NCBI RefSeq assembly: GCF_004010195.1
Contig: NC_057719.1
Span: 11,333,923-11,353,922, forward strand
Origin: Chiloscyllium plagiosum
Taxonomy: Eukaryota
Direction: 5' to 3'
DNA: 20,000 nucleotides
Under the pieces are notes generated by a model, which had not been told where the DNA came from, made no database searches, and worked only from the letters and a program-made list of their open reading frames with translations. The position numbers and the translations under genes are program-made. This document shows, piece after piece, positions 2,781 through 20,000 of the stretch (positions within the stretch are counted from its first letter, which is position 1; each line of letters opens with the position of its first letter).

Positions 2781-2875
2781 CACAGAAGTAAACATATTTA
2801 ATCAAACTACTCAAAGTCCACAATCTTCCAGTCTAGTGAATTTAGGTTAATAGAAAACACTAGACATTAATGCAG

Positions 2876-2987
2876 GATAAAAGCAAACTGACAAAGGGTC
2901 AGTTAGACTCGAAACGTCAGCTCTTTTCTCTCCTTACAGATGCTGCCAGACCTGCTGAGATTTTCCAGCATTTTCTCTTTTCGTTTC
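2876..2987 (+). mobile_element. Penelope-derived mini-element (pLTR fragment) with 14-bp TSD
   Basis: Flanked by AGACATTAATGCAG at 2862-2875 and 2988-3001. Body is the near reverse complement of 3345-3446. The first 12 nt (GATAAAAGCAAA) match the extreme terminus at 3316-3326 in the opposite orientation to the body. Confidence 0.88.
2888..2922 (+). ncRNA. Minimal hammerhead ribozyme-like motif, 5'-truncated (C3/A8 mismatch)
   Basis: CTGACAA-A-GGGTC-agtta-GACTC-GAAAC-GTC-AGCT. Stem II pairs fully (one G-U); the 5' strand of stem I is lost at the junction. Confidence 0.55.
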
Positions 2988-3315
2988 AGACATTAATGCA
3001 GCTTCTGCATTTATCAAGAAACTACTGGTTTATTAGAAATAAATCAATCCTAATCACAGATAAACAAATGATTGAAAGAGGTGCTCTTTTGTTTTTTGAG
3101 TCTTTGTGATCTCTAACTTTCATTCCAAGTCCACTCAGTTCTTTATTGAAGACGCATGGCAATTGTCACACCAATTATTCACTGCCTGAGTTAGAATCAG
3201 CAATTTACAAGCACATGGTGAGCAAAAATAGTAAGCTATCTTCTAATTCTTTGTGATGTCTCTGCAATGACAGGATGTTGTCTTTTTATAGAGCTTTATT
3301 ACATTCTTCTTTTAA

Positions 3316-4020
3316 ATAAAAGCAAATTACTACGGATGCTGGAATCTGAAATCAAAAGAGAAAATGCCGGAAAATCTCAGTAGATCTGGCAGCATCTGTA
3401 AGGAGAGAAAAGAGCTGACGTTTCGTGTCTAACTGATCCTTTGTCAAAGCTAAAAAAAGGGAGAAAGAGGGAGGTATTTATACTAGGCTGAGAAAAGGTG
3501 AGTCATGGCTCCAGAAGCAAAGGTAGCAATAAAGAGGTGACAATGACAGTGCATAGAGAGATTATAGGGAAATTAGGAGCTGTGAATGACCAAGGCTGAA
3601 GCCAATGCTATGGGGCAAAAATATGTGGGGAATGGGTGAAGCAGAGGCAAAATGGAAAACAGGGGAGAAGAGCAGCAAAAGAGGAAGAGGAAAGGAAAAA
3701 GGTGATGAGAGAGTGGGGAGCGAGAGAAAGAGAGACAATCAAGAAATAAGAGGTACAGGACAGTGAAAAAAATATTTTAAAAATGAAATAAAATTACGGA
3801 GCAGAATGAAAACAGAGGAGTCGAGATGGGATAATCATGTGAAGTTGTTGAATTCAATGTTGAGACCGGCAGGCTGTAACGTGCTTAGTCGGAAGATGAG
3901 ATGCTGTTCCTCCAGTTTGCATTGAGCTTCACTGGAACATTGCAGCAGGCCAAGGACAGACATGTGGGCATGGGAGCAGGAGTGTGTGTTGAAGTGGCAA
4001 GCCACGGGAAGGTCCAGGAC
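3316..4020 (-). mobile_element. Penelope-like element, 5'-truncated: endonuclease C-terminus, pyrimidine-rich 3' UTR and pLTR end
   Basis: Minus strand 4017-3835 translates as LDLPVACHFNTHSCSHAHMSVLGLLQCSSEAQCKLEEQHLIFRLSTLQPAGLNIEFNNFT*, typical of the C-terminus of a PLE GIY-YIG domain. A CT-rich tract and a hammerhead-bearing terminus follow. Confidence 0.9.
3413..3451 (-). ncRNA. Minimal type I hammerhead motif with U3-A8 variant core
   Basis: Minus strand AGCT-TTGACAA-A-GGATC-agtta-GACAC-GAAAC-GTC-AGCT. Stem I is AGCT/AGCT; stem II has two mismatches in this copy. Confidence 0.6.
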
Positions 4021-4092
4021 CTAATTGTATTCTTCTTTTGTTCAATTAACTTCGGTCTCTTCATTAAAAGTACATTCGAAGCCTCGAAAGTG

Positions 4093-4168
4093 CTCGAAAC
4101 GTCCACTCTCCTGCTCTATGGATGTTGCCTGACCAGCTGTGCTTTTCTAGCACCACACTTTTCAACTA
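4093..4168 (+). mobile_element. Penelope pLTR 3' fragment (same family as 8957-9125)
   Basis: CTCGAAACGTCCACTCTCCTGCTCTATGGATGTTGCCTGACCAGCTGTGCTTTTCTAGCACCACACTTTTCAACT aligns with 9053-9126. Confidence 0.8.
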
Positions 4169-4491
4169 GGTGTATAACAGCCTGGGTACAGCAACTGCTC
4201 TGCCCAGGACCAGAAGAAACTACAGAGGGTTGTGTGCACAGTCCTCACCATGATGGAAGCCAACCTTCCATCCATGGACTCCATTTACACACCCTGTTCC
4301 TGTGGAAAGGCTGCCAACATCACTAAAGAGCCATCACACCTTGGCAATGCACTCCTATAACCTCTTTCATCAGGCAGAAGATACAGAAGTTTGACCACTT
4401 GCACCAGCAGGTTCAAGAACAGCTTCTCGCTGGCCATTATTAAACTGATGAATGGACTCTCTAACTTTAAATAATGCTTACTTTGCTAATG

Positions 4492-4751
4492 CAAGGTTTG
4501 TGAAGGTTTGTAGCTCAGGTTGAGGTTTAGGGTGTAGGTTTGCTCGCTGAGCTGTAGGTTTGATATCCAGACGTTTCGTTATCTGGCTAGGTAACATAAT
4601 ATCTTATATAGATATCTTATATAGATATAAATAGAAAGCAGGAGACAACAGCTTCGCTTCACTTGGAGGTCGCCACTGATGATTTTACCTAGCCAGGTCA
4701 TGAAACGTCTGGATGTCAAACCTACAGCTCAGCGAGCAAACCTACACCCTA
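4492..4751. mobile_element. Inverted-repeat Penelope-derived mini-element with 14-bp TSD
   Basis: TSD TTACTTTGCTAATG at 4478-4491 and 4752-4765. About 70-bp inverted arms at 4528-4597 and 4682-4751. The sense half resembles the Penelope terminus at 16497-16606. Confidence 0.9.
4673..4712 (+). ncRNA. Minimal type I hammerhead motif
   Basis: CCA-CTGATGA-T-TTTACCT-agcc-AGGTCAT-GAAAC-GTC-TGG. Canonical core and 3-bp stem I; the base of stem II is mutated relative to the antisense arm (GTTACCT...ATAAC). Confidence 0.6.
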
Positions 4752-5060
4752 TTACTTTGCTAATGTTGATCTTGCCTTGCGCATGCCTCTATCCAAGTTT
4801 TTTATTCATCCTATGATCTATATAGGAGCTTGATTACTATGATCTGTTTGTATTGTTTGTAAACAAAACTTTTCACGGTACTTAGGTACATAAAACAATA
4901 AATCAAACAACTGGGTGAGCGGAAAGCAGAATAATGATGCTAGAAATTTCAAATGGAAACAGAAAAGGCAGGCACAAGCTCAACGCAGAAACAGAGGTTA
5001 GCCAATACTGAAATAGCCAAGTTAAAAGATCCACTTCCTTTCCAAAAGCATTGAGCCCAA

Positions 5061-5255: not shown

Positions 5256-5593
5256 GTCATAGTCATAGAGTCATATAGATGTACAGCATGGAAACAGACC
5301 CTTCGGTCCAACCCATCCATGCCGACCAGACATCCCAACCCAATCTAGTCCCACCTGCCAGCACCCGGCCATATTCCTCCAAACCCTTCCTATTCATATA
5401 CCCATCCAAATGCCTCTTCAGTGTTGCAATTGTATCAGCCTCCACCACATCCTCTGGCAGCTCACTCCATACACGTATCACCTTCTGCGTGAAAAAGCTG
5501 TCCCTTAGGTCCCTTTAATATCTTTCCCCTCTCACCCTAAACCTATGCCCTCTAGTTTTGGACTCCCCAACCCCAGGGAAAAGACTTTGTCTG
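5256..5593 (-). mobile_element. HER1/CR1 LINE 3' end
   Basis: ORF 5263-5481 RVWSELPEDVVEADTIATLKRHLDGYM is the CR1 ORF2 C-terminus; (CTATGA)-type microsatellite tail. Confidence 0.92.
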
Positions 5594-7174: not shown

Positions 7175-8956
7175 AAGAGGGAGGAAAATTAAATAAAAAG
7201 ACTTTTACCCCTCAAAGATGACATATACCTGACAAATCACCTTAACATGAAGGAAAGGTGCTGCTCAACTTTCTGCATTGTTAGCAGTGCCATCACCAGG
7301 TTGCTGCAGAAAGTGCAGCTCCTGCTGATCAACTGTATCAAGTTCACATTAACTTTGATTTTCTAGTGCTCTATTTGGCTTCATCATAACAGTACAATCT
7401 ATTAGTCAACTTAAAAGTTCCCAGTATGTACAAGATGTCTAATTTACTGGCAATCAAATACAAACTGTTTCTCAGCACGTCTGCAGTGCCACTACTGATT
7501 GTTCCACAACCTTAAGTAAAGCATTATTGTAAATCTCAGGAATGGAAACTATACTTAATTTCCTAAAAGAAATTAATAAAGCAGACAAAATGACATGAGC
7601 TCTTGACTACTAGAAATGAGTTACAGGCTAAAATCTACTTGAAGTTTCAGATTAATTAGCACCTCATCCACAAATATTCCACTCCCTCCATCACAGGCGA
7701 CCAGTAAGCTTAACATCTGTGGTGGGTAAGTTACTTGAGAATATTCTGAGGGATAAGATATACATGCAATTGGAAAAGACAGGGTTTGATTAGCGCATGG
7801 CTTTGTGAGTGGGAGATCATGTCTCACAAATTTGTTAGAGTTTTTTGATGAAGTGACTAAGAAGGTTGACGAAGGCAGGGCTGTAGACATAGTCTATGTA
7901 GATTTCAGTAAAGCCTTTCATAAGGTTCTACATGGTGAGCTGCTCTGGAAGGTTAGATGACATGGAATCTAAGGCGAGCTGGTAAATTGAGTACAAAGTT
8001 GGCTTGTTGGGAGGAAGCAGAGAGTAATAGTGGAATGTTGCTTGTCAGACTGGAAGCCTGTGACTAGCGGAGTGCCTCAGGGGGTTGGTGCTGGGCCCAT
8101 TACTGTTTGCTATCTAAATCATTGATTTGGGTGAGAATGTACAAGGCATGATTAGCAAGTTTGCTGATGACACTAAAATTGGCGGTATCCTTGGCAGCGA
8201 GGAAAGTTATCAGAAATTGCAGCAGGATCTTGATCAGCTGGGGAAGTTGACCTAAAAATGGTAAATGGAGTTTAATGTAGATAAGTGTGAGGTCTTGCAT
8301 TTTGGAAAGTCAAATCAGGTAGGAGTTTTATGGTGAATGGTAGGGCCTTAAGAAGTGTAGTGGAACAGAGGGATCTTGGAGTTCATGGTTCTCTGAAAGT
8401 GGAGTCACAGGTAGACAGGGCAGTGAAGAAGGCTTTTGGCGTACTGGCCTTCATGAGTCAGGGCATTGAGTATAGAAGTTGGGAAGTTATGTTGCAGTTA
8501 TACTGGACATTGGCGAGGCCACACTTGGAGTATTGTATTCAGTTTTGGTCACCTTGCTATCGGAAGGATGTTATTAAACTGCAGAATGCAGAAGAAATTT
8601 ACAAGGATGTTGTCAGGACTCAATGGTCTGAGTTATAGGGAGAGGTTAGACAACCAGGACTTTTTTTCTTTAGAATATAGGAGACTGAGAGGCATATAAG
8701 ATCATGATAGGCATGGATAGGTTGAATGCACTCAGTCTTTTTCCCAGTGTTGAGGAATTGAGGACTAGAGGGCATCAGTTTAAGGTTAAAGGGGAAAGAT
8801 TAAAACTGAACCTGAGGGGCAACCTTTTTTTAAACACAGAGGGTGGTATGCATATGGAATGAGCTGTCAGCGGAAGTGGTTGAGGCGGGTATATTAACAA
8901 TATTTAAAAGGAACTTGGACAAATATATGGATAGGAAAGGATTAGAAAGATATGGG

Positions 8957-9125
8957 GAGAAAGTGAGGTCTGCAGATGCTGGAGATCAGAGCTGAAAATG
9001 TGTTGCTGGAAAAGCGCAGCAGGTCAGGCAGCATCCTGAAGAAGGGCTTATGCCCGAAACGTCGATTCTCCTGTTTCCTGGATGCTGCCTGGCCTGCTGC
9101 GCTTTTCCAGCAACACATTTTCAGC
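8957..9125. mobile_element. Inverted-repeat Penelope-derived mini-element with 15-bp TSD, nested in HER1
   Basis: TSD TTAGAAAGATATGGG at 8942-8956 and 9126-9140. Near-perfect ~47-bp inverted arms (8990-9036 and about 9079-9126) enclose a hammerhead motif. Confidence 0.93.
9033..9066 (+). ncRNA. Minimal type I hammerhead motif, intact core
   Basis: ATC-CTGAAGA-A-GGGC-ttat-GCCC-GAAAC-GTC-GAT. Canonical CUGANGA/GAAA/UH, perfect 4-bp stem II, 3-bp stem I. Confidence 0.7.
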
Positions 9126-9242
9126 TTAGAAAGATATGGGCCAAGTGCAGGGAAATGGGGTTCGCATGGATGGACATTTTGGTTGGCATGGACCAGTTAG
9201 GGCCAAAGGGCCTGTCTCCGTGCTGTAGGACTCTATGACAAT

Positions 9243-9462
9243 GAAAACAGATAAATGGGAACACCACTACCTGCAAGCTCTCTTCCAAGTTACTCGCCAT
9301 CCTGAGTTGGAAATACATTACCATTGCGTCACCGTCATTGGGTCAAAATCCTGAAATTCCCTCCCTAAGGGCACTGTGGCTCAACCTATAACACATAGGA
9401 CTGCAGCTGTTCAAGAAGACAGCTCACCACCACCTTCTCAATGGCAACTAAGAATGGTTAAA
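9243..9462 (+). mobile_element. CR1/L2-group LINE 3' end (second family)
   Basis: GGGAACACCACTACCTGCAAG...GGGTCAAAATCCTGAAATTCCCTCCCTAA...TTCAAGAAGACAGCTCACCACCACCTTCTCAA overlaps the family seen at 5061-5180. 7645-7692 is probably its upstream part. Confidence 0.75.
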
Positions 9463-9465
9463 TTA

Positions 9466-9639
9466 AACAAAGCATTGTGAATGCAGGAGATCCAAAACAA
9501 AAACAGAGATTGGTGGAGAACCTCCACAGGTCTGTCAGCATCTGTGGAGAGAAAGCAGAGTTAACATCTCGAGTCCGGTGACTCTTCATCAGGTCTCGAT
9601 GAGTTTGCTGAATTTTGCCAGCAATTTCTGTTCTTGTGT
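9466..9639. mobile_element. Older inverted-repeat Penelope pLTR remnant with mutated hammerhead
   Basis: Antisense arm 9466-9593 reads on the minus strand CTGATGA-A-GAGTC-accg-GACTC-GAGATGTTA (GAAA changed to GAGA). A short sense arm at about 9605-9639 is complementary to 9498-9530. Confidence 0.75.
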
Positions 9640-9664
9640 AAGTTTTTGGTAAATGTCTTCAGCA

Positions 9665-10160
9665 CCCCCTTTAAGACCTTGACCTCTTTCCTAAAGTGCA
9701 GTGCCCAGATCTGAACAGAATCTTTCTGCTGAGGCTGGATTATGTCTTTTGCCCAGATAATTATCTCTTAAGAAATTCTCCACTACACAACTTGAGGACG
9801 GCTGGCCTGATGTTGCTGGATTTATTTGATTCTTTCTTTTTAAAGATTTGCAATTCTCCAGCACTCTGGATCCAGCCTACATGAAAAGACAATTGGGAGA
9901 TCGTGACATGAGCCTCCTCAATTTCCATCCTTAACTTCCTTGCTAACGTGGCATGCATCTAAACTGGACCAGGTGCCTTTTCTACTTTGAGGAATGCCAA
10001 CTTTTTAGGACTACCTCTTAATTTTATCCTGTCCAACTTTGCATAGCACCATTTTCTTTTCTAGCAAAGACAGATGCAAAGTACACATTTAGCAGCACTA
10101 TGCCCTCTGCTTCCACAAGATGATCTCCATTTTATTCCCTAATCAGCTCTGTCCATCCTT
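9665..10160 (-). mobile_element. Very old CR1 fragments
   Basis: Minus strand VQIWALHFRKEVKVL-like and LNVYFASVFARK-like remnants of CR1 ORF2. Confidence 0.55.
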
Positions 10161-10429: not shown

Positions 10430-11592
10430 ACTACGGTGGGAGAGTTCAAAGCTAGGGGGGATATTTTTAAGGCAACAGGGGAAAGGTTTAAGAAGGACAT
10501 GAGGGAAAACCACAAAATGATGTATAGACAGGTTAAATGAATGGGCTGCACGGTGGCACAGTGGTTAGCACGGCTGCCTCACAGCGCCAGGGATCCGGGT
10601 TCAATTCCCGCCTCAGGTGACTGTCTGTGTTGAGTTTGCACGTTCTCGCTCTGCATGGATTTCCTCTGGGTGCTCCGGTTTCCTCCCACAGTCCAAAAAC
10701 GTGCAGGTTAGGTGAATTGGTCATGCTAAATTGCCCGTAGTGTTAGGTGCAGGGGTAAACATAGGGGAATGGGTCTGGGTGGGTTGCGCTTCGGCGGTCA
10801 GTGTGGACTTGTTGGGCTGAAGTTTCCACACTGTAAGTAAGTAATCTAAAAAAAAATGCAACAAACTGAGTATAATTTGAGAAAATGTGAAGTTGTTCAT
10901 TTTAGTGAGAAGAATAGAAAAGCATGTTATCCAGATGATGAGAAATTGATCAGTCTGATATGCAGAGTTATGGGAGTCCTCGTGCAGGAATTACAAGGGA
11001 TAGTATACAGGTGGAGCAAATAATTCGGAAAGCTAATAGAATGTGATCATTCATCACAAGGAGAATTGAAAGCAAAAGTGGGGAGGTTACGTTTCAGTTA
11101 TACAAAGACTGCATCTAACTGTGCACAGTATTGGGAAAATTCAGAGAAGGCTTACCAGATCTGAAATAGTGGAGGGGCTTGTCTTATGAGAAAAGGTTGA
11201 CAGACTTGACTTGCATCCTCTGGAAGTTTAAAGAAGTAAGAGTGAATTGATGAAAATATATAAGATCTTGACAGGATAGATATGGAGCAAATGCTTCCTC
11301 ATGAAGAACCAAAAAGTAGGGTCCGCTATTTAAAAATTAGGAGTCATCCACTTCAAACATAAATCAGCTGATTTTGTTTACCCCACAGAGGGTCATGAAT
11401 CTTTGGAGGTCTCTGAAAAGGTGGTGGAAGCAGTACTCTTGAATATTTTAAGATTGAAGTCGATAGATACTTGCGAAGCAAGAGATAAGAGATCATCGGT
11501 GTTAGCAGGAATGCAGATCTGAGGTTACAATCAGATAATTTATGAGCAGATGTAGAAATCCTCCTCCTGCTCCCAACTGATATGTTTGTATT
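10430..11592 (+). mobile_element. Old CR1 LINE 3' fragments, split by an HE1 SINE
   Basis: IDRLNEW|...EYNLRKCEVVHFSEKNRK, LSYEKRL and IYKILTG-type remnants; ends CTCCTCCTGCTCCCAACTGATATGTTTGTAT. Confidence 0.8.
10543..10856 (+). mobile_element. HE1-type V-SINE, full length
   Basis: A box TGGCACAGTGG, B box GGTTCAATTCC, V-domain, HER1-like 3' end and A-rich tail. Confidence 0.93.
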
Positions 11593-14326: not shown

Positions 14327-14373
14327 AACATTTAGGTCACAACTTTGCGACGAAAAGTTGTGACCTAAATGTT
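14327..14373. repeat. Perfect 20-bp inverted repeat with 7-nt loop
   Basis: AACATTTAGGTCACAACTTT-gcgacga-AAAGTTGTGACCTAAATGTT. Confidence 0.97.
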
Positions 14374-14794: not shown

Positions 14795-15489
14795 GAGTCA
14801 CAGAGTTATAGAATTGCACAGCACAGAAACAGACCCTTCGGTCCAATTCGTCCATGCCAGCCAGAAATTCTAAATTAATCTAGTCCCATTTTCCAGCATT
14901 TGGCCCATTTCTATCTAAACCCTTCCTATTCATATACCCATCCAGATGCCTTTTAAATGTTGTAATTGTACAAGCTTCCACAACTTCCTCTGGCAGCTCA
15001 TTCCATACACGCACCACCCTCTGCATGAAAAAGTTGCCCGTTAGATCCCTTTTTAATCTTTCCCCTCTCACCTTAAATGTACGCCCTCTAGTTTTGGGCT
15101 CCCCTAACCTGGGAAAAAGGCCTTGGATATTTAGGCTATCCATGGCCCTCATGATTTTATGGATCTCTATAAGGTCACCCCTCAACCTCCAACACTCCAG
15201 GGAAAATATTCAGTCTCTCCCTGTAGCTCAAATCCTCCAACCCTGGTAACAGCTGTGTAAATCTTTGCTGCATCCTTTCAAGTTTCACAACATCTTTCCT
15301 ATATCAGGGAGACTAGTATTCTAAATCTGGCCTAACCAATGCCCTGTACAGCCGTAACATGATCTCCCAACTCCTGTACTCAATACACTGACCAGTAAAG
15401 GCAAGTGTATCAAACACCTTCTTCACTATCCTGTCTGCCTACGAGTCCATTTTCAAGAAACTATGAACGTGTACCCCAAGGTCTCTTTG
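14795..15489 (-). mobile_element. HER1/CR1 LINE 3' portion
   Basis: ORF 14880-15185 RGDLIEIHKIM...NFFMQRVVRVWNELPEEVVEA...FKRHLDGYM; terminus matches the other HER1 ends. Confidence 0.95.
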
Positions 15490-16054: not shown

Positions 16055-16606
16055 AAAAGAAACTACTCAGACCCCTTTGCATCAGGGCAGCCCACAAACC
16101 CACCAACACACTACAACAGCAGCTAATGACCTTGAAAGACCCTATACAGACATCAAGCAAAAATGTCATTTCCAAAATAACTTGCAAGAACTGTAACAAA
16201 CACTACATTGGATAAACAAATAGAAAACTAGCCACCAGGATACATGAACTAGCCACAAAATCACATGATCCTCTCTCACTAGTATCTTTACACATAGATG
16301 AGGAAGGACACTACTTCAACTTGGACAACACATCCATCCTAGGACAAGCCAAACAGACACATGCACGAGAATTCCTAGAAGCATGTCATTCTATCAACAA
16401 ACACATCGAATTAGACGCCATCTACCACCTCCTGAGAAAAAGAACAGATAATGACATCACCACAGGAAATGATATCACCAACCCAAAGAAACCCAAACAT
16501 ATAAATAGAAAGCTTCGCCCAGGGGCCCACTGAAGATGTTACCTAGTATGGTGACGAAACGTCTGGAAATGAATCTTCCAGCTCAGCGAGCAAATCTACA
16601 TCCAGA
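16055..16606 (+). mobile_element. Penelope-like element, 5'-truncated: GIY-YIG endonuclease pseudogene and pLTR
   Basis: HKPTNTL...KDP...VISKITCKNCNKHYIG*TNRKLATRIHE...GHYFNLDNTSILGQAKQTHAREFLEA, a GIY-YIG domain with CxxC. Stop at 16213-16215; hammerhead-bearing terminus. Confidence 0.93.
16527..16566 (+). ncRNA. Minimal type I hammerhead ribozyme motif, intact
   Basis: CCA-CTGAAGA-T-GTTACC-tagtat-GGTGAC-GAAAC-GTC-TGG. Canonical core, 6-bp stem II, 3-bp stem I and palindromic ACGT in place of stem III; predicted cleavage after C16563. Confidence 0.75.
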
Positions 16607-19337: not shown

Positions 19338-20000
19338 GGGGGATCCAAGATGGCGGCGACCCAGCAAGACTGAGTCTATAGTGCTCCTCCCAAGACTTGG
19401 GTACAGTGGGTCACCCACCCCCTACCACGCTCACCAAATCATTTATAATAGTTGTGTAATTTAATTAGTTGTGTAATATTACATTTGAACAATTTAATCC
19501 TAAGTAAAAATGACTAAAGGGAAGGGAGCCCGCAGCTCTCAGCAAGCAGGAACCCCTCCCCCACCCTCTCCAGCTGCAGCAGAGGAGTCCACAGCCGCCC
19601 CGGGGGACTTACCTACAGTAACACGCCTTGCAGAAATGATTTCCAAGCTGGATTCGAAGATCGATGCCTTTATTGCAGAATCCAGAAATCGTTGGGACTC
19701 GCTCTCGGCCGCGCTGCAGAAGCACAACCGAGAAATCCTGAGTCGGAGGGGCGGAGTTAAAGGCCGCGACCTCCGAAAATACCGCACAATTGGCCGTGGA
19801 TCAGGTCGTTGATAATCGAGGTCGTCGAAAAAATATTCGTTTGCTGGGCCTTCCCGAACGGGAAGAGGAAGGCCAGCTTACAGCATTCCTGGAGCAGTGG
19901 CTGCCACAGCTTTTAAATCTGCAAGCTGGATCAGGCCAGGTAAGGGTGGAATGGGCCTACCGGGTAGCAATACGCGGGCCCGGCTCGAACCAGCGCCCAC
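19338..20000 (+). mobile_element. L1-clade LINE, 5' UTR and ORF1 (runs off the window)
   Basis: Starts GGGGGATCCAAGATGGCGGC (YY1-type motif at 19346-19357); CpG-rich ORF1 with the L1 ORF1p signature DNRGRRKNIRLLGLPE. Confidence 0.92.
19510..20000 (+). pseudogene. L1 ORF1p (Transposase_22-like), frameshifted
   Basis: MTKGKGARSS...KLDSKIDAF...LQKHNREI in frame 1. The homologous continuation VGGAELKAATSENTAQLAVDQVVDNRGRRKNIRLLGLPEREEEGQLTAFLEQWLPQLL...VEWAYR is in frame 2 from 19742. Confidence 0.88.

Follow-up and report, generated by a model that had tools for sequence, protein, structure and literature searches.

The window, that is, the whole 20,000-nucleotide stretch of Chiloscyllium plagiosum DNA under analysis, contains four short inserts (A to D), all with their two pieces in head-to-head orientation and a tail on one piece only, and three further copies (E to G) of the ends of Penelope-like elements (PLEs; Table 1). 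The inserts measure 110-260 nt in all and have no coding body between their arms. Other features of the window are (i) LINE-like 3' ends at 5261-5589, 7690-9239 and 14796-15470, presumably CR1-type, with many contigs ceasing to match at 9239, which marks a LINE-like 3' terminus, (ii) inverted copies of one short repeat at 1902-2123 and 10541-10758 (84-87% identity), which resembles a tRNA-derived shark SINE, (iii) an isolated palindrome at 14327-14373 that is unrelated to the PLE families (23-nt arms, 96% complementary, 1-nt loop) and (iv) a GC-rich stretch with broken frames at 19340-20000, similar to the beginning of an L1-type element (5' end with ORF1), in which a Pfam search of 19742-19999 gave no match.

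Table 1. Positions of the four inserts, their parts and the three other PLE copies in the window (TSD, target site duplication)
Feature	Positions	Strand	Description
Insert A, whole	2862-3001	+	exact 14 bp TSDs at 2862-2875 and 2988-3001
Insert A, antisense piece	2876-2887		12 nt, tail only
Insert A, sense arm	2889-2987	+	begins at hammerhead U4
Copy E	3314-4028	-	plain 5'-truncated PLE: GIY-YIG C-terminus (3841-4017), 3' UTR, hammerhead, tail
Copy F	4078-4167	+	solo sense end of the insert C family; stops at the tail-less position of insert C
Insert B, whole	4478-4765	+	exact 14 bp TSDs at 4478-4491 and 4752-4765
Insert B, tail	4492-4527		36 nt
Insert B, antisense arm	4528-4600		ends within hammerhead core
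Insert B, tandem filler	4599-4628		13-nt unit
Insert B, sense arm	~4621-4751	+
Insert C, left TSD copy	8942-8956	.	15 bp, with G8956 possibly part of the element; aligned records begin at 8956
Insert C, tail	8957-8989	-	33 nt, one-sided; antisense copy of distal terminus
Insert C, antisense arm	8990-9036	-	47 nt; ends on TCC microhomology (9034-9036) shared with sense arm
Insert C, sense arm	9034-9125	+	minimal hammerhead 9033-9066; ends at tail-less site
Insert C, right TSD copy	9126-9140	.	exact repeat of left copy; empty-site alignment
Insert D, whole	9466-9639	-	older fold-back, without TSD
Insert D, tail	~9466-9497
Insert D, antisense arm	to 9592		ends at hammerhead C3 position; GAAA mutated
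Insert D, sense piece	~9593-9639		diverged
Copy G	16060-16603	+	5'-truncated PLE with GIY-YIG region; intact minimal hammerhead at 16530

A preliminary description of this DNA had read all four inserts as variants of one plan, in which an antisense copy of the element's terminus is followed by a junction and by a sense copy that stops short of the terminus. This plan holds for inserts B and C, but in insert A the antisense side is reduced to the 12-nt piece of tail, and in insert D the arms match each other poorly. The arms of insert C align over 46 of 46-47 positions with 1 mismatch, and its predicted fold is far more stable than that of shuffled sequences (z = -14.7 vs 200 shuffles), while the arms of insert B are identical at 67 of 73 positions. 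All 6 mismatches of insert B (4528-4600 vs 4679-4751) fall in the junction-proximal 37 nt and none in the outer 36 nt, a skew that may have come from two different template RNAs or from repair of the outer stem at a later time. Its filler consists of 2.3 copies of a perfect unit that is near-palindromic and AT-rich, and which we take to resemble the templated insertions of end joining. Insert A does not qualify as a fold-back: the insert contains no inverted repeat, and nothing in the sense arm pairs with the antisense tail piece. The unpaired tails of 33, 36 and about 30 nt in the earlier account were borne out at 33 nt in C, 36 nt in B and 31-34 nt in A, the last by way of copy E. Insert D was rightly seen as an older fold-back, yet its arms match weakly, and a search of its flanks that tolerated as many as 2 mismatches in 12 revealed no TSD.

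The exact TSDs of 14, 14 and 15 bp reported for inserts A, B and C were confirmed by flank comparison, and they far exceed what random flank pairs produce (longest exact repeat 10 bp, and none of 300 pairs reaching 14 bp, with a slack of 20 nt). The figure of 14-15 bp is nevertheless looser than it appears, because 1-3 of the duplicated bases also fit the element, giving 11-14 bp for A, 14 bp for B and 13-15 bp for C. Copy E, a complete 715-nt tail-bearing truncated insertion, has a TSD of its own (11 bp exact, 13 of 15, at 3299-3313 and 4025-4039; null 3 in 5000); since this copy is plain and its TSD is of like size, such TSDs are not peculiar to fold-backs. None was found at the flanks of copies F and G. 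The TSDs are 64-71% AT, against 59% for the window. Insert C lies in a LINE-like 3' end and is a true insertion, because the alignment with a related LINE 3' end (14800-15000) runs through the site with the insert absent, and contigs of two DNA runs jump from 8952 to 9147-9154, omitting it.

PLE families and hammerhead motifs

Two PLE families supply the arms, and each has a GIY-YIG-coding copy in the window (E and G). Insert A is 93% identical to the end of copy E over 102 nt, and the peptide upstream in copy E is 63% identical to P0010, a protein bearing RT-like and GIY-YIG sequence, over 97% of its length. The sense arm of insert B is 78% identical to the end of copy G and translates into the C-terminus of the shark PLE protein P0002 (52% over 40 aa, E 2.7e-4), to which copy G itself is 70% identical over 168 aa; the RVT_1 and GIY-YIG matches of P0002 are weak, both lying below the Pfam cut-off, and GIY-YIG matches among the related proteins in general fall short of it too. 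Owing to these links of B to P0002 and copy G, of A to copy E and of E to P0010, a PLE origin of inserts A to D is virtually certain. Inserts C and D are only 70-75% identical to A and E (C being ~70% like both), and C is 80% identical to copy F over 77 nt. All protein matches that carry species names are from carpet sharks.

Several searches delimit these families. A profile search of the window found no further copies (6 matches to one family and 3 to the other, all of them inputs), and no autonomous partner of the insert C subfamily was seen in the window, where the only coding copies, E and G, are truncated. Pfam gave no relevant match for five window ORFs, where a Cas_Csy1 match was rejected as weak (E 0.12), nor for a read-through of copy G. 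Scans with degenerate motifs derived from the window had no match in viral contigs, metagenome contigs or prokaryote genomes. Copies E and F were considered as a single fold-back and rejected as such, with no common TSD and ~70% identity. Pieces of PLE endonuclease also lie inside predicted host proteins (P0005, P0007, P0008, P0009 and P0011), some of them under unrelated names, and are either gene-model errors or exonised PLE fragments; in Pfam, P0009 and P0011 gave no GIY-YIG match.

The inserts had been called hammerhead-bearing, and a pattern scan does find hammerhead-type cores in all four, but only in C is the core undamaged, and there it is predicted to be buried in a hairpin. A core with GAAACGT occurs at 2888, 9036 and 16530, and degenerate forms in B, D, E and F. 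Insert A combines C3 with A8 and is missing the 5' strand of stem I, in B stem II of the sense copy is broken and the antisense copy stops within the core, and D has GAGA in place of GAAA. Insert C alone among the four has core and stem II intact in sequence (C3 at 9036, predicted cut after 9063). In its predicted fold, however, stem I has a pair probability of 0.0 and C3 is paired, both being tied up in the long hairpin; to adopt the hammerhead fold would cost 8.5 kcal/mol, or 5.7 kcal/mol without the antisense arm, in a model that treats the monomer and leaves out dimers and protein help, which minimal hammerheads reportedly need (PMC4209133, PMC11167929). The hammerhead is probably a passenger in inserts A to D. 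No hammerhead family was matched in Rfam, and three matches to miRNA hairpins, below the gathering score, were rejected as generic hairpins. Copy E has a hammerhead (3440-3470, minus strand) of the U3-A8 core variant, and a pyrimidine tract that closes with AG, much as in a splice acceptor, lies 2 nt ahead of the core; that variant is known in PLEs, and an intron of Drosophila Penelope ends at helix I (PMC4209133).

The front edge of the hammerhead also coincides with several arm ends. There are eight arm ends in total, and four of them (A sense, B antisense, C sense and D antisense) fall between -2 and +3 relative to C3, a clustering with P ~0.011 that was computed post hoc on an arbitrary uniform range of 180 nt. 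In raw reads, agreement over the 30 letters upstream of 9034 is 0.49, against 0.44 at the true terminus and 0.63-0.82 in a conserved continuation, although a value of 0.49 could also come from indels in a low-complexity UTR. That this edge is the 5' end of the RNA is put forward tentatively, as somewhat less than an even chance. Self-cleavage as the source of the 5' boundary was rejected for A and C: their sense arms begin ~28-30 nt upstream of the predicted cut, and a boundary ~28 nt upstream of that cut means that self-cleavage does not make it.

Termini and junctions in reads and contigs

Four of 24 listed runs, representing three organisms, were aligned at 85% likeness to positions 8880-9700 of the window. 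X1 and X9 are DNA contigs from organisms A and B, respectively, X15 consists of RNA-like contigs from organism C, and X21 of raw poly(A) single-cell reads from organism A (~2% of the run). The aligned records number 108,208 in X1 (counted only in part), 82,495 in X9, 18,738 in X15 and 3,719 in X21; the best run contains 0.57 of the sequence words, and none of the contigs listed spans insert C. Loose ends before 8956 occur in 1099, 1183, 231 and 637 records of X1, X9, X15 and X21, with a flank agreement of 0.34-0.44. In both of the genomes sampled as DNA (X1 and X9), over 1,000 contigs share this fixed tail terminus although their flanks are unrelated. The tail-less end recurs too, copy F ending at the position of C and copy G within 2 nt (0-2 nt) of that of B. 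Summed depth in X1 reaches 6-9 million on the arms, against ~6 at 9664-9691; this suggests a family copy number of 1e5-1e6, although a summed contig depth is no copy number.

Internal junctions are many and each of them is rare. Among the best 15 of 743 joints counted, four join a tail piece, starting from 8978, 8984, 8988 or 8989, to the hammerhead edge, which is the layout of insert A; none of these four exceeds a depth of 191, whereas depth on the arms adds up to 6-9 million and single-copy contigs (X1) have ~5-6. One of them, 8988-T-9034, occurs in three organisms with depths of 70 (X1), 181 (X9) and 9.5 (X15); for X1 and X9, the two DNA runs, this is ~12-15 times the depth of single-copy sequence. 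At the junction of insert C, aligned records have loose ends both before 9034 and behind 9036. Of the ~1,181 reads of X21 covering 9016, at least 679 exit the sequence of insert C at 9035-9036 into a conserved continuation, and 553 reads enter the hammerhead at 9034 from a different upstream sequence, which places the junction of insert C on the shared TCC. This junction is not the family norm. Records carrying it match the reference and do not appear as joints; the raw reads bound them at no more than ~43%. Reads of X21 run in both directions with no pile-up of starts or ends, and 97% of those aligned continue into other sequence, in a type of library that misses small and circular RNA. As for insert D, its junction is carried on contig 24 of X9, which spans 9538-9700 with 4 differences at a depth of 13.4; the insert is therefore older than the split from organism B, where it looks single-copy.

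Formation of the inserts

The preliminary description offered two options, a stereotyped product of GIY-YIG/RT priming and self-propagating, MITE-like ribozyme elements, and suggested that identical junctions at many loci would speak for propagation and unique ones for formation at each insertion. The reads and contigs answer this in part, since their joints are mostly varied while 8988-T-9034 recurs in three organisms. The first option gains support from the fixed tail terminus and from arms that, as had been required of it, derive from the termini of GIY-YIG-encoding elements (copies E and G, proteins P0010 and P0002); the second loses ground through the many, individually rare junctions and the damaged or buried ribozymes. 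Formation anew at each insertion is very likely. Taken as a whole, we think it probable that inserts A to D are dead, doubly 5'-truncated insertions of endonuclease-positive (EN+) PLEs, each twin-primed as it inserted, with twin priming itself a reasonably probable route.

Twin priming would proceed as follows. The PLE protein would nick both target strands with a stagger of ~11-15 nt and so create two 3' overhangs. The overhang of the top strand would prime cDNA at the distal RT start site, yielding tail and antisense arm, and the bottom-strand end would prime at a proximal site 31-36 nt further in, yielding the tail-less sense arm. The cDNA ends would then be joined, by the TCC microhomology in C, near-bluntly in A and with templated filler in B, and fill-in of the staggered nicks would create the TSD. 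Since the arms of B and C overlap on the template (by 73 and 47 nt, respectively), a second RNA or strand displacement has to be assumed for them. The scheme is drawn from three TSD-bounded two-piece inserts. It accords with a PLE protein that cuts and extends both strands and is modelled as a dimer, and with an RT that starts at two sites, the tail being the gap between them (PMC11167929).

An unlikely alternative is self-priming, in which one cDNA or antisense RNA snaps back at each insertion and is copied into the inverted arm, as was proposed for head-to-head palindromes of PLEs (PMC3846280). The duplicated, near-palindromic 13-nt filler at the junction of insert B and the 3-nt microhomology at that of insert C would both suit such a fold. 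A snap-back, however, copies only what the first arm contains, and it is excluded for the tail piece of insert A because a copied arm can hold only first-arm sequence and this piece has no partner. Insert C would need an extra deletion, each of its arms having sequence that its counterpart lacks (the tail in one case, the hammerhead in the second), and the 4 of the best 15 of 743 joints that link tail-only pieces to the hammerhead edge speak against self-priming as well.

Much less probable are self-propagating ribozyme mini-elements, MITE- or retrozyme-like, that would be transcribed, perhaps circularised, and re-inserted in trans by PLE protein. The very high abundance (108,208 contigs in X1 and 82,495 in X9) would fit, as would the recurrence of joint 8988-T-9034 in X1, X9 and X15, whose depth propagation would also give, and non-LTR retrozymes are reportedly non-autonomous PLE derivatives that occur in one cartilaginous fish too (bioRxiv 10.64898/2026.07.22.740005). 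Yet the four inserts show four junction types, every joint among the 15 shown has a depth of at most 191, the junction of insert D has a single-copy-like depth of 13.4 in X9, the ribozyme is damaged in A, B and D and predicted to be buried in C, and tandem arrays of such units are absent from the window. It is similarly doubtful that a ~125-nt hammerhead-headed RNA is made on its own and inserted by twin priming, its products being re-transcribed and re-inserted as a fold-back PLE satellite; such a self-renewing satellite, improbable as it is, would be neither a tandem retrozyme nor a MITE, and the joint of tail and hammerhead edge found in three organisms would be its example. Least probable of all, two separate events, in which a second PLE end would insert in reverse beside or into the first with a later deletion, would suit the density of PLE ends (A, E, F and B within 1.9 kb), the cutting of pLTR-junction DNA by PLE endonuclease in vitro (PMC11167929) and the differences between arms (6 of 73 sites in B, strong in D), but in A, B and C the two pieces lie together between one pair of exact TSD copies and no TSD separates them, the arms of C differ at 1 site, and all four inserts are head to head with the tail always on one piece.

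Relation to known elements

Inserts A to D do not form a new class of element; they are a new and very abundant case of insertions already described, and more precisely the smallest form of the inverted pLTR plus tail. They show what characterises EN+ PLEs: (i) a terminus homologous to the 3' end of an element with RT and GIY-YIG, in C and D only via A and E, (ii) a tail of 30-40 nt at one end, (iii) an inverted truncated copy within a TSD, fully in B and C, as a 12-nt piece in A and without TSD in D, and (iv) by pattern scan, a minimal hammerhead in the terminal repeat. An inverted pLTR, a one-sided 30-40 nt tail and a TSD have been described jointly for these elements (PMC3846280, PMC8557442), whose complex insertions share with ours the inverted 5'-truncated copy, the tail, the TSD-bounded unit, the microhomology junctions and the terminal-repeat hammerhead. 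Ours differ in having no coding body, a size of 110-260 nt and a very high copy number, and in the tail-only antisense piece of insert A; TSDs are 11-15 bp here and 8-10 bp in rotifer PLE insertions. To call this an under-described system, as was done at first, is thus too strong, since the layout is in these two papers, opposite-strand pairs of minimal hammerheads 100-700 bp apart, from truncated PLEs, are in PMC4209133, and the tail is explained in PMC11167929. Our literature search, which covered titles and the starts of abstracts with partial coverage of subscription journals, found no paper on shark PLE mini-inserts and none, within the same scope, on twin priming in PLEs.

The closest relatives differ in instructive ways. 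Anolis Poseidon PAc (PMC11167929) likewise has two fixed end points, which lie 31-36 nt apart here, AT-rich targets and a hammerhead that is not required for insertion; the tail of insert B is similar in being 72% A+C, whereas those of A, C, D and E have 38-58%, and the inverted arm present here is not modelled in the available parts of that paper. The minimal hammerheads of metazoan PLEs (PMC4209133) have the same core, stem II, short stem I and palindromic GAAACGUC, no helix III, dispersed solo motifs and the U3-A8 variant (seen here in copy E), but those in our fold-backs are buried or broken, and the portion of that paper available names no shark.

Ours are also short non-coding pieces and invite comparison with other inverted or small elements. 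For L1 twin priming, the source cited is reportedly Ostertag and Kazazian 2001. In that process both nicked strands prime cDNA as well, giving an inverted 5' piece within one TSD (PMC9148063), whereas the inserts here have no poly(A), putative fixed priming sites near the same RNA end and segments that can overlap. Non-LTR retrozymes are alike in being short, non-coding and PLE-derived, with a type I hammerhead and a TSD of more than 4 bp (PMC7229834; bioRxiv 10.64898/2026.07.22.740005), but they form head-to-tail tandems with a hammerhead per unit and circular RNA, while the inserts here are head to head or solo with a single damaged or buried motif each; the window contains no head-to-tail tandem of units that each carry a hammerhead. 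The comparison with MITEs can be made in the same terms. MITEs have inverted repeats at both very ends and a uniform interior in many copies. Part of this feature list is from PMC8969392. Here, inserts B and C have 33-36 nt unpaired on one side and A has no terminal inverted repeats, and the interior varies, with 743 joints (15 shown) and most reads diverging from insert C at 9035-9036.

How the inverted pLTRs of PLEs form has been described as open (PMC8557442), with rival models left standing (PMC3846280). A genome with very many tiny inserts is useful in this respect, since a single read can take in the two TSD copies, the two start sites and the junction. Tail-only antisense pieces, as in insert A and in the joints from 8978-8989, discriminate twin priming from self-priming, and arm ends at the front edge of the hammerhead, if this proves true, would map the 5' end of the RNA and argue against a boundary set by the ribozyme. 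Repeats of this kind are also open to misfiling as MITEs or miRNA hairpins. Counting tail-only pieces together with hammerhead-edge boundaries makes the question of the inverted ends of PLEs a testable one.
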